This document shows positions 1 through 61,495 of a DNA stretch of 64,000 nt, in pieces. The stretch is from positions 49,675-113,674 of the forward strand of contig JBAXKC010000004.1 of assembly GCA_037137535.1 (NCBI GenBank), written 5' to 3'. The stretch comes from a bacterium. GTDB lineage: Bacteria; Cyanobacteriota; Vampirovibrionia; Gastranaerophilales; JBAXKC01. Made by a program: the position numbers and the translations under genes. The notes under the pieces are model-generated. The model worked only from the letters and a program-made list of their open reading frames with translations, did not search any database and was not told where the DNA came from. Numbering within the stretch: the first letter of the stretch is position 1; every line of letters begins with the position of its first letter.

Positions 1-731
1 GCTCAGGCCTTGGTGATTTTGCTGAAAAAATCAACGGTGTAAGAATAAATTTTTCTGACATTCCCGGATTTGCAGCATCTTCAGTGGCAGGACATGCAGG
101 AAAGCTAATTATAGGGGAATTATTCGGCAAACATGTTCTTGCGATGCAAGGAAGATTTCATTTTTATGAAGGTCACTCCCTTGAAAAAGTTATCTACCCT
201 ATCAGAATAATGAAACTTCTCGGAATTAAAAACCTTATCGTTACAAACGCAGCCGGTGGTGTAAATACAGAATATAAACCCGGTGATCTTATGGTAATTA
301 ATGACCATATTAACTTCATAGGAACAAATCCATTAATCGGCAAAAACTTTGATGAATTTGGACCTAGATTCCCCGATATGTCAAAAGCATACGCTGATAG
401 TCTGATTGAACTTGCTAACAAATCAGGTGAAAAACTTGGTATTAAATTGCAAAACGGTGTATATGCTGCTCTTACCGGACCATCATACGAAACACCTGCT
501 GAAATAAGAATGCTTAGACTTTTAGGAGCTGATGCCGTTGGAATGTCAACTGTTCCTGAAGTTATAGCAGCTAATCACTGCGGAATGAACGTACTGGGCA
601 TTTCCTGCATAACAAACATGGCTTGTGGCATTTTAGACCAACCTTTAAACCATGAAGAAGTTATTGAAACATCAAACATGGCAAAAGCTTCTTTCATCGG
701 GCTAATAAGTGAAGTAATAAAAAATATTTAA
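1..731 (+). CDS. punA: Purine nucleoside phosphorylase (trimeric PNP family), 5'-truncated by the window edge
   Basis: Frame is open from position 3 (SGLGDFAE...). Motifs QGRFHFYEG, TNAAGG, GPSYETPAE, GADAVGMSTVPE and SCITN are present. Confidence 0.95.
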   Translation, partial: SGLGDFAEKINGVRINFSDIPGFAASSVAGHAGKLIIGELFGKHVLAMQGRFHFYEGHSLEKVIYPIRIMKLLGIKNLIVTNAAGGVNTEYKPGDLMVINDHINFIGTNPLIGKNFDEFGPRFPDMSKAYADSLIELANKSGEKLGIKLQNGVYAALTGPSYETPAEIRMLRLLGADAVGMSTVPEVIAANHCGMNVLGISCITNMACGILDQPLNHEEVIETSNMAKASFIGLISEVIKNI

Positions 732-759
732 GTTTTGTAAACTTATTAATATAAAATCC

Positions 760-786
760 TAAAGTTTTAAGGAGAGAGGTCGATAA
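760..786 (+). promoter_or_regulatory. Sigma-28 (FliA)-type promoter, copy 1
   Basis: TAAAGTTT at 760, 15-nt spacer after TAAA, GTCGATAA at 779-786 (one mismatch to GCCGATAA). Confidence 0.8.
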
Positions 787-793
787 ATAATAT

Positions 794-879
794 ATAGACC
801 AAACAAATGGTCATACCCCAACCTCCTCCCCAAAGTCTGGTAGCCGCCCAAAAAGGTGGCTTTTATTTTGCCTTTTTTT
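794..879 (+). ncRNA. Candidate sigma-28-dependent sRNA, copy 1
   Basis: Hairpin GACCA-aacaaa-TGGTC, C-rich tract CCCCAACCTCCTCCCC (816-831), terminator AGCCGCC-caaaaa-GGTGGCT followed by T tracts. Ends are estimated. Confidence 0.7.
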
Positions 880-920
880 AGACTCGCATTAAGTTTTGTT
901 AACAAACTAAAATAAAACCC

Positions 921-947
921 TAAAGTTTTTTAAAAAACTGCCGATAA
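921..947 (+). promoter_or_regulatory. Sigma-28 (FliA)-type promoter, copy 2
   Basis: Perfect TAAA-N15-GCCGATAA with the extended -35 TAAAGTTT. Confidence 0.88.
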
Positions 948-954
948 ATATTAC

Positions 955-1040
955 ATAGACCAAACAAATGGTCATACCCCAACCTCCTCCCCAAAGTCTG
1001 GTAGCCGCCCAATAAGGTGGCTTTTATTTTGCCTTTTTTT
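955..1040 (+). ncRNA. Candidate sigma-28-dependent sRNA, copy 2
   Basis: Same core as copy 1; terminator loop is CAATAA. Confidence 0.7.
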
Positions 1041-1081
1041 AGACTCGCATTAAGTTTTGTTAACAAACTAAAATAAAACCC

Positions 1082-1108
1082 TAAAGTTTTTTAAAAAACT
1101 GCCGATAA
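1082..1108 (+). promoter_or_regulatory. Sigma-28 (FliA)-type promoter, copy 3
   Basis: Perfect TAAA-N15-GCCGATAA. Confidence 0.88.
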
Positions 1109-1115
1109 ATATTAC

Positions 1116-1201
1116 ATAGACCAAACAAATGGTCATACCCCAACCTCCTCCCCAAAGTCTGGTAGCCGCCCAATAAGGTGGCTTTTATTTTGCGTTTTTT
1201 T
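1116..1201 (+). ncRNA. Candidate sigma-28-dependent sRNA, copy 3
   Basis: Same core as copy 2. Confidence 0.7.
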
Positions 1202-1372: not shown

Positions 1373-2089
1373 ATGGCATTTAAAATGGAAAAAATGACAG
1401 AAGCAGATATAGCGTACTATAACTCATTTGAATTTAAAAACGTTGCTTTTGGCAGTATAAAATATGACCCTCCGTTATTACCTCCACCACGAAACTTTGT
1501 AGTTGAGGAGGGGGTAGGAATAAGCACAACTGCTTGGATCGTAGATAAAGAACGCAATGCATTTGTACGAGGAGTAGGAGGTGGGGGACATGGAATGCCT
1601 GAATTTCAAGTCCTTGTATGGAACGGTGACGTAATAATATGTTCTTTTTATGAAAAATATACGAAGAATCTTAAGGAGTTTAATTTCTGGTGGATTCAAG
1701 CACCAAAGCACCTTCAGAGCGAAGAAAACAGTAAAGAAATAATAAATATGATAAAAGAAGCTCTTATTCTTGAAGGTACAGGAATTAGCATACCGGCAGG
1801 CGCTTTAAATGATCAAGATTATGCCTGGCTTTACTCTATAGAGTTTAATAATGAAAAACCTTTGACTGGGCTTGTTTCTACAAAAGAATTGAAAAAAGAC
1901 GACCCTGAAATAAAAAGTAAAATAAAGCAGGTACTTGAGAAGTGTATAAATAATCCTGACGTTCCTCAAGATTTATTAGAAACTCAAAATTATTCATTAA
2001 AACCAAAAAAATTCACTTTTAATGAAATGGGAGTAGGATTCCGCCTTAATCCTCAAGATTATAAAAATAATTATATGCTTAGGGATTAA
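1373..2089 (+). CDS. Hypothetical protein
   Basis: 238-aa ORF with AGGAG RBS at about 1361. No recognised family. Confidence 0.75.
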   Translation: MAFKMEKMTEADIAYYNSFEFKNVAFGSIKYDPPLLPPPRNFVVEEGVGISTTAWIVDKERNAFVRGVGGGGHGMPEFQVLVWNGDVIICSFYEKYTKNLKEFNFWWIQAPKHLQSEENSKEIINMIKEALILEGTGISIPAGALNDQDYAWLYSIEFNNEKPLTGLVSTKELKKDDPEIKSKIKQVLEKCINNPDVPQDLLETQNYSLKPKKFTFNEMGVGFRLNPQDYKNNYMLRD

Positions 2090-9081: not shown

Positions 9082-9780
9082 ATGTATAATACATTAAAAA
9101 AGATTTCTGAATTTATATCAGGGAAAAAACTAAAAGCTAACAAACCTCTTTCAAAAAAAGCCGTTTCTTTCCTTCAATCAAATGAAAACTTACAATTGAA
9201 CAGCAAAGAAAAACTTAAAATAGATAAAGTAAGTTTTGATGCAAAAAAAATACTTAAAAATTTCATCAAAAAACCGAATGAACTGCTAAAATTCATTGAA
9301 AGCAAAGGAACTATTGTCATACAGGCAAAAGGCATTGAAAAAATGTTCCGTCTTATAGGCCATGAAGAAGGGTTTATTTATCCACTTACAGGCTCTAAGG
9401 CTTTAACTCTTTCAATTGCAATTAATATACTTGCACCAGGGAAAATCAAAATCTCAAACAAAACACCACTTATGTTTGTAGCAAGAAAAGGGCCTTTAAG
9501 CGTGTATAGCCTTGCACATCAATTCTATCACTGGGTTTCTTATGTTAAAGGACTACCAGGCTATGAAGAAGAAACCATCTCTAACTTTAAAAACATCTGG
9601 AGCACTGAATTTAACGCACAAACCGCACCGCTTATGAATGTTGACGAAATCCTTGCCCTTAAAGAGGCAATATCAAGAGATATGGAAGCAATACAATTCG
9701 TTAAAGAAATTTCAAGAGAATTCATCGGCTCAAAAAAATCTCTTGATAAGCTAAAACAGGGTGAAACGCTTAATATATAG
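9082..9780 (+). CDS. Hypothetical protein
   Basis: 232-aa ORF with a GGGGGAG tract just upstream; contains HQFYHW (HExxH-like but without Glu). Confidence 0.75.
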   Translation: MYNTLKKISEFISGKKLKANKPLSKKAVSFLQSNENLQLNSKEKLKIDKVSFDAKKILKNFIKKPNELLKFIESKGTIVIQAKGIEKMFRLIGHEEGFIYPLTGSKALTLSIAINILAPGKIKISNKTPLMFVARKGPLSVYSLAHQFYHWVSYVKGLPGYEEETISNFKNIWSTEFNAQTAPLMNVDEILALKEAISRDMEAIQFVKEISREFIGSKKSLDKLKQGETLNI

Positions 9781-9831
9781 AGATAAATAAAACTTTTAAC
9801 TATAAAGCAAAAGATATTCTATAAATTATTT

Positions 9832-10869: not shown

Positions 10870-11235
10870 AACAGCCTTAATTATGAATCTCAATAGAGTT
10901 CATCAGCTCAAAAAAATCTCTTGATAAGCTAAAACAGGGTGAAACGCTTAATATATAGAGATAAATACTTGTAAACATCATAACTATAAATTAATATATA
11001 TTTAAATGAAAAAATATTCGGCAAATGATTCATATAGTAATCATCTTTAATTTTTTAAAAAATAAAAGACGAAAGTATTAACAATGAATTCTTATCTGCT
11101 ATTTGTATAATAAAAATATTTTACAGAGAGAACAAAAAATGTTGTCATCTTGTTAAATCAACCCAAAGATACAAGAAATTACAGGCTTAATACTTCTATC
11201 TAAATTTTAATATTAGAAAGAGATTATTTAATAAG

Positions 11236-61375: not shown

Positions 61376-61461
61376 AAAAAAAGGCAAAATAAAAGCCACC
61401 TTTTTGGGCGGCTACCAGACTTTGGGGAGGAGGTTGGGGTATGACCATTTGTTTGGTCTAT
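61376..61461 (-). ncRNA. Candidate sigma-28-dependent sRNA, copy 4 (dispersed, inverted)
   Basis: Reverse complement matches the copy-1 core from TAGACC through GCCTTTTTTT. Confidence 0.7.
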
Positions 61462-61468
61462 ACATTAT

Positions 61469-61495
61469 TTATCGGCAAGTTATTTTAAAACTTTA
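61469..61495 (-). promoter_or_regulatory. Sigma-28 (FliA)-type promoter, copy 4
   Basis: Minus strand TAAAGTTT-taaaataactt-GCCGATAA, 15-nt spacer after TAAA. Confidence 0.88.

Follow-up and report, generated by a model that had tools for sequence, protein, structure and literature searches.

In Campylobacter jejuni, CjNC1 and CjNC4 (CJnc10/CJnc170, FlmR) are described as paralogous stand-alone sigma-28 RNAs with a terminator, predicted to pair over the ribosome-binding sites of middle flagellar genes (flgE) as a feedback (PMC4626219, PMC11187230; here and below, literature is cited as far as the available parts of the sources go). They repress reporters of middle flagellar genes, and their deletion left motility unaffected (PMC4626219), while overexpression of FlmR gave shorter filaments (PMC11187230). 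In E. coli, the sigma-28-dependent UhpU, MotR, FliX and FlgO tune flagellar synthesis (PMC10578931, PMC11187230). Yfr1 (RF01116) of the cyanobacteria, a sister lineage, is an RNA of 54-69 nt described as constitutive (PMC2190773, PMC6778093). The Cuckoo RNAs (RSs0680/CcsR) of alphaproteobacteria have 2-4 hairpins, each with the motif in its loop (PMC4615179), and RosA of Bacillus subtilis is a separate small RNA that sponges RoxS (PMC8216469). HMP2_3837 is a candidate RNA with a 52-nt motif, mostly from Melainabacteria (PMC8040213), and a term search in the available text of a survey of 202 cyanobacterial genomes (PMC12873609) returned no mention of the lineage studied here. Literature searches on taxon plus RNA and on the motif gave no Melainabacteria regulatory RNA family, most subscription papers lying outside their coverage.

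Here we analyse a tandem array found at the start of a 64,000-nt stretch of DNA (the window). The reading that we consider most likely, with a probability of roughly 60%, is that the array encodes a FliA-driven, stand-alone antisense RNA that brakes flagellar assembly mRNAs.

The array and its genomic copies

A first-pass annotation of the window had described three tandem units with an exact 161-nt period. Direct-repeat comparison confirmed this period (728-888, 889-1049 and 1050-1210); in the frame of unit 3 the similarity stops near 1201. The promoter string TAAAGTTT-N11-G(C/T)CGATAA is present, as had been read, in each unit and again on the minus strand, at the four promoter positions given below, and the 86-nt cores correspond to the four predicted RNAs.

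728-888, plus strand: repeat unit 1 (AT-rich upstream stretch, promoter and RNA gene), from direct-repeat comparison
760-786, plus strand: sigma-28-type promoter copy 1 (TAAA-N15-GTCGATAA), from boxes and conservation
794-879, plus strand: predicted small RNA copy 1, about 80-86 nt, 5′ end placed by promoter spacing
797-812, plus strand: 5′ hairpin, variable in sequence but with pairing kept in homologues, from fold and covariation
816-841, plus strand: open C-rich tract and conserved AAAGUCUGGU, the predicted pairing region
842-879, plus strand: intrinsic terminator hairpin and U tail
889-1049, plus strand: repeat unit 2
921-947, plus strand: sigma-28-type promoter copy 2
955-1040, plus strand: predicted small RNA copy 2
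1050-1201, plus strand: repeat unit 3
1082-1108, plus strand: sigma-28-type promoter copy 3
1116-1201, plus strand: predicted small RNA copy 3
61376-61461, minus strand: predicted small RNA copy 4, in convergent orientation to the glycine-cleavage P gene
61469-61495, minus strand: sigma-28-type promoter copy 4

The fourth copy announced at a distance of about 60 kb is indeed there (61376-61495, minus strand), but the total is not four: this genome (2.95 Mb, 31% GC) contains nine near-identical copies of the RNA gene on six contigs. Within the window the 16-nt C-rich tract occurs four times vs. zero times in 100 shuffles. Two further statements held in part. The promoter spacer, said to vary in sequence and not in length, differs in unit 1 but is identical in units 2 and 3. 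Variation of the core in the terminator loop alone applies to units 1 and 2, but not to unit 3, where an additional one-base change lies right before the T run. Of the 18 differences between units 1 and 2, one is in the terminator loop and the other 17 precede the core; units 2 and 3 can be told apart at their 3′ ends only.

The gene upstream of the array encodes purine nucleoside phosphorylase, and the two chemoreceptor genes annotated in the window were found. Downstream of the array lies an orphan gene (window 1373-2089) without a Pfam match, to which a related stretch was seen by eye on contig C26. Elsewhere, an 82-nt direct repeat (95%) at window 9708-9789 and 10886-10967 occupies the 3′ ends of two adjacent orphan genes.

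Structure, conservation and independence of the RNA gene

The RNA part is predicted to fold, on the plus strand (z -2.6 and -2.9), into the arrangement proposed at first pass, namely a 5-bp 5′ hairpin, an open C tract and a 7-bp terminator. The minimum-energy fold has an additional weak helix of AAAGUC with the U tail. The C tract has a median unpaired probability of 0.81 (minimum 0.53), and RNA bodies with the 5′ hairpin measure 72-86 nt (5th-95th percentile). The 5′ hairpin occurs with 30 different stem cores; of 144 distinct sequences, 137 have a hairpin that outscores 95% of shuffled versions of itself. In the model-fitted alignment eight of nine model pairs change on both sides, with a covariation of 0.35 vs. 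0.14 in shuffles, a test that leans towards the model because the alignment was fitted to it. The CCUCCUCCCC-AAGU core is nearly invariant across homologues. It reads ACCUCCUCCCCAAGU in 150 of 171 loci and as close variants in the remainder, an invariance that is overstated because the loci were chosen via a core pattern. In family f4 (L005, L011 and L012) some tandem copies are without the 5′ hairpin and some carry CUCUUCCCC, so that the f4 siblings have diverged.

At 156 loci the orientation of the next gene downstream was recorded: 80 have a convergent gene, 42 a co-oriented one, and for 34 the orientation is unknown. The varied, unrelated neighbours and the frequency of a convergent downstream gene argue against a cis element. 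Promoter, covarying hairpins, terminator and varied neighbours together bear out the suggested anatomy of a stand-alone small RNA, and each unit is very probably transcribed as an independent gene, the predicted transcript being about 80 nt long. In two RNA runs from a 99%-alike organism, consulted as assembled contigs only, the upstream gene is covered and the contigs end before the array; in two further runs a relative's copy lies inside contigs which extend past it and are probably DNA.

That no described family was recognised at first pass agrees with Rfam 15, in which no family matched the RNA at gathering or E-value level. The window gives two tRNAs only; the best score of the array was 18 bits against a cut-off of 88, and 14 homologous loci gave none. 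The RNA is an uncatalogued sigma-28-type small RNA family, the Melainabacteria candidate HMP2_3837 having been compared by description only.

Sigma-28-type promoters and fliA

TAAA-N15-GTCGATAA is the FliA/sigma-28 consensus, and ACCUCCU is the 16S anti-Shine-Dalgarno sequence. A two-box promoter rule was scored over 153 homologous loci. The boxes, whose loss in homologues had been named beforehand as speaking against the first-pass reading, are kept in 130 of the 153 loci (63 with both exact), with a spacing of 15-16 in 128, whereas shuffles gave a mean of 2.7 and a maximum of 8. The fliA gene, expected at first pass, is present in this genome over the TIGR02479 cut-off, as it is in 37 of 41 genomes and in all 28 of the near-complete ones. 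The same boxes precede a flagellin gene of this genome, one of the six flagellins listed fitting the rule within 200 nt. The presence of fliA, the flagellin boxes and conservation across loci support the sigma-28-type promoter at the sequence level, and transcription of the RNA would very likely depend on FliA.

Distribution across the order and beyond

A covariance model was built from 39 sequences and used to scan 41 genomes of the order, probably Gastranaerophilales, and 118 genomes outside it. It found the RNA in 40 of the 41, at one to nine copies each; for family f3 the figure is 31 of 32 genomes. The family is real, is present in nearly every genome of the order and is more than a peculiarity of one motile strain. 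The single order genome without a model match (G024) has on contig C14 (L325:1490-1580) a look-alike hairpin with a C-rich strand and a terminator, at an E-value of 0.7 and with no clear sigma-28 boxes, possibly a diverged copy.

Outside the order, matches were obtained in 8 of 118 genomes, from three of ten families, and none in the other seven families sampled. Inspection of all nine such matches showed CCCCAACCUCCUCCCCAAGU, a terminator and, by eye, sigma-28-like boxes in eight, but not in the ninth; given these homologues, the RNA family is older than the order. Model R2 gave no match in four genomes of other families, three of them with fliA over the cut-off. An exact 19-nt pattern was absent from 224 genomes of other classes of the phylum, a weak test since this sample holds no positive control. 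The exact 24-nt core pattern was found in at least 120 stretches of a species collection. Among the 80 matches listed, names that are informative most often read Gastranaerophilales, Melainabacteria or one of their genera, next to some other labels, and the Melainabacteria-like host deduced at first pass is in keeping with these names.

Pairing with flagellar translation starts

For 2527 genes, called by our own start rule, positions -40 to +15 were scored by duplex energy with the RNA; the energies rest on these start calls and mostly ignore accessibility. In the first genome scan flgK, flgN, fliJ and motA ranked within the top 40. The flagellar set was assembled after these four had ranked high and is not blind. 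It takes in every gene for basal body, hook, junction, motor and export in five operons, 31 in total, and Pfam supplied the names of all but one; an ORF between flgJ and flgN, not nameable as FlgM by Pfam or NCBIfam, was retained by its position.

The 31 flagellar starts pair with a median of -20.3 vs. -12.5 kcal/mol, and 16 of them are in the top tenth. None of 20,000 Shine-Dalgarno-matched draws was as strong, nor was any of 20,000 also matched in G content, and the real RNA won over shuffled RNA in 60 of 60 comparisons. GGGG occurs in 10/31 flagellar starts vs. 178/2473 others. In separating flagellar starts the 16S tail alone is worse than the whole RNA (AUC 0.32 vs. 0.17). The complementarity to ribosome-binding sites postulated at first pass is borne out by the Shine-Dalgarno-matched test. 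At the operon level, counted as background runs as strong, flgF-L (0/142), fliJ-flgE (0/823) and mot-fliLMN (4/599) stand out, flgB-fliI is marginal (18/328) and fliP-flhA is not outstanding (157/599). For eight late genes (flagellins, fliS, flaG) there was no enrichment beyond Shine-Dalgarno strength (2769/20,000).

A similar trend was seen in 20 relatives, where 86 flgJ-L starts had a median of -17.8 vs. -12.6 for 135 control starts (p 1e-5), with controls that are not random, kin that are not independent and flagellar Shine-Dalgarno sites that are also stronger (p 2e-4); 15 of 21 genomes lay in the expected direction. When own and foreign RNAs were swapped on flagellar starts, the genome's own RNA had no advantage (p 0.23). 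Pairing was weak (median about -12) for 14 flg starts from four genomes that do not belong to the order, scored with no control set.

Two candidate regulators were observed among the genes examined. A NarL-type response regulator (L290:9377-10084; G000:C36:9374-10084, minus strand) is the first gene of the flgB-fliI run; it may be the flagellar activator, and its start ranks within the top 1% when paired with the RNA. An ORF at G000:C1:47046-47339, minus strand, CsrA-like by its motif, is a possible second post-transcriptional layer over flagellar genes.

In the antisense model that we favour, FliA (sigma-28) would transcribe each unit separately and the C-rich strand would be kept open between two hairpins. 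This strand would pair blockwise with G-rich translation starts and block the loading of ribosomes. In flagellated members the chief targets would be the rod, ring, hook, junction and motor mRNAs, so that the RNA would act as a brake after sigma-28 release. Judged from complementarity, repression would probably proceed by base-pairing, and we lean, with less assurance, towards flagellar mRNAs as the predicted targets. The family has named, testable candidate targets and a near-universal presence in the order.

Retention of the RNA without flagella

Flagellin and FlgK were found in none of ten f3 genomes, each 99% complete. In the same family fliA is present in 10/10 genomes and the RNA in 9/10, always as one copy. 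Assignment to the late flagellar regulon of a motile host, as first proposed, is too narrow: the link to sigma-28 stands, but f3 keeps the RNA and fliA without flagellin. Because both survive there, the retention of the RNA in flagellin-less gut lineages suggests that sigma-28 runs something else in them, and the RNA gives a handle on this other role.

Two export systems of flagellar type are encoded in this genome, and the four f3 genomes examined have one full FlhA only, scoring like the second type. Here the second, flagellum-derived system lies at L289 (G000:C13:60-10372) and L292 (C7:22704-25501) and includes FliI, FlhA, FliH, FliF, FliE, rod proteins and FliP/Q/O/N. Its 15 start regions in this genome are not enriched for pairing (1212/20,000). 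A target pattern search in five f3 genomes gave 23 matches vs. 15 in controls; four were the RNA gene itself, two were at real gene starts, and no target was common to the genomes.

Strongest partner sites and a second promoter class

Pairing with the RNA was scored over 7405 G-rich windows from the whole genome. Behind the nine copies themselves, the six best sites belong to four loci, namely the C8 leader (three sites), the C45 trailer and the starts at C27:7547 and C1:112581. The C8 sites match the genome's own 5′ hairpin over up to 21 nt, followed by blocks interrupted at similar points, with net energies of -39, -26 and -39 kcal/mol, and a fourth at -19, vs. a background 0.1 percentile of -17.7. 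The C8 leader insert is not present in the closest orthologues (among the 10 loci listed). The C45 element (L260:1020-1160; G000:C45:3525-3652) is a hairpin-closed stretch of 130 nt that directly follows a small gene; it matches the invariant part of the RNA perfectly over 14 nt and has no Rfam family. Its site weakens to -16.4 kcal/mol once the whole hairpin is folded, and 40 relatives gave two weak partial matches, taken as chance. C1:112581 was found in none of 40 relatives. Orthologues of C27:7547 keep G-rich starts in nearer families and do not keep the AGACU part. As read from their sequences, the partner sites may be targets of recent origin, may act as sponges, or may be inverted copies of the RNA gene that have decayed. 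The pattern AGACTTGGGGAGH, designed to find a long conserved complement to the invariant core, matched in one of 61 genomes vs. three control matches, and such a complement was rejected.

All four partner units carry a second promoter, GCAATT-N14-TGTTTTTATATA, at ranks 69, 13, 86 and 8 of 2527, in a class defined post hoc after the partner loci had been viewed and with two of the four in the matrix training set. The class is of fixed length, with 64 sites by pattern and 42 genes within 450 nt, mostly for orphan proteins; examples in G000 are C1:112581, C45:3212, C6:6647 and C62:8061. Pairing enrichment among 35 genes of the class is small (501/20,000). A protein family represented by L034:5147-5434 (G000:C8:58146-58433, minus strand) and its paralogues has helical ends that are conserved and a central part whose length varies greatly, and occurs in 41/41 genomes; the C8 member is without a Pfam match, and some members have sigma-28 promoters, others second-class ones.

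These sites give rise to an alternative which we regard as doubtful, in which the RNA is a phase-switch regulator. As the RNA of a sigma-28 life-stage programme, it would oppose a second programme read from the GCAATT-type promoters, whose transcripts would carry the long bulged complements as targets or sponges, and flagellar genes would be one output. The concentration of the six strongest sites in loci that all have the second promoter, the predicted energies of the C8 sites against the background, and the retention in f3 of fliA, the RNA and the second flagellum-derived FlhA without flagellin agree with it, as does the proposal, in the available text on Bdellovibrio, that FliA is a global phase regulator there (PMC3627812). 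However, the class is post hoc, was trained on two of the four loci and shows that small enrichment; the C8 insert, the C45 element and C1:112581 are not conserved in the relatives compared; the C45 site has only -16.4 kcal/mol in the fully folded hairpin; and 189 kb of f3 loci contain one strong second-class site only.

Brake and switch could also be joined, in a scheme that we consider rather doubtful, with the RNA as an ancient Vampirovibrionia riboregulator forming one arm of a two-state switch. The sigma-28-made RNA would silence the mRNAs for flagellar assembly together with key transcripts of a second sigma programme, leaders and trailers of that programme with several bulged complements would soak it up, and the copies of the RNA gene would have risen to nine against them. 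As flagellum-less gut lineages still have fliA, a single RNA copy and a secretion system derived from the flagellum, such a switch would govern life stage and not motility.

Other explanations

Compared with an antisense RNA on flagellar starts, a protein-binding decoy appears improbable. Here the invariant C-rich strand would mimic the 16S 3′ end or bind a poly(C)-reading protein, and would act by titration and not by pairing with mRNA. A core nearly invariant from f3 to other orders, beyond what loose pairing seems to require, would be explained in this way, the many copies agree with titration, and the covariation of targets with the RNA is not significant (p 0.23). Against this, the match to the 16S end is only about 7 nt long, the whole RNA is far superior to the 16S tail in pairing with flagellar starts (AUC 0.17 vs. 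0.32), and long complementary sites do occur in mRNAs.

It is very improbable that the opposite strand is the functional one, with GGAGG and an ATG starting a small hydrophobic, type I toxin-like peptide and the RNA as its antitoxin: such an opening is present in 9/9 copies and the CAT is kept in 113/153 loci, but the frame runs from 7 to 23 codons among the nine copies and is scattered in homologues, the CAT is missing in 40/153 loci, the frame crosses the promoter, whose boxes and spacing are the conserved part, and the terminator U tail is on the plus strand. A cis-acting leader or attenuator of the downstream gene, or a selfish or assembly repeat, is likewise very improbable: in favour are a co-oriented downstream gene in 42/156 loci and tandem copies here and in some relatives, against a convergent gene in 80/156 loci with unrelated neighbours, a single copy in all nine f3 genomes with a match, the 18 differences between units 1 and 2, and zero matches to two exact patterns in viral contigs.

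Comparison with known systems

When the proposed antisense brake is set beside described RNAs, the E. coli RNAs UhpU, MotR, FliX and FlgO differ in that, according to the available text, they derive from mRNA untranslated regions, whereas the genes here are free-standing. RosA resembles the C8 leader as an RNA controlling a regulatory small RNA and, as far as its available description goes, can serve as a model for it, but the C8 candidate sponge is an mRNA leader insert found in one genome. With the Cuckoo RNAs the RNA has in common sibling copies and the anti-Shine-Dalgarno-like motif CCUCCUCCC, which here is present once, between two hairpins, and not in loops.

Yfr1 has a similar build, with a 5′ hairpin, an unpaired, CU-rich invariant motif and a GC-rich terminator with a U tail, and CUCCUC is common to both. 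Identity with Yfr1 was rejected, as its invariant unpaired ACUCCUCACAC is absent and ACCUCCUCCCCAAGU forms the core in 150 of the 171 loci. The RF01116 model scored over its cut-off in 0/5 genomes, with weak matches at other places, and neither guaB nor trxA was seen among the flanking proteins, for which 28 of the 30 largest clusters were sampled by one representative each.

Closest in their proposed workings are CjNC1 and CjNC4, a likeness of layout and predicted pairing: common to both are a sigma-28 promoter (here at the sequence level), paralogous copies, a terminator and complementarity to middle flagellar starts. The Campylobacter RNAs are shorter than 50 nt, come in two copies at the level of a genus, act on sigma-54-dependent targets and have no 5′ hairpin in the description available. 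The RNA reported here is about 80 nt long, has a 5′ hairpin, occurs in one to nine copies across an order and beyond, and is kept without flagellin. Should the RNA brake the synthesis of hook and rod, the same feedback logic under sigma-28 would have arisen both in Campylobacter and in the cyanobacterial sister group.
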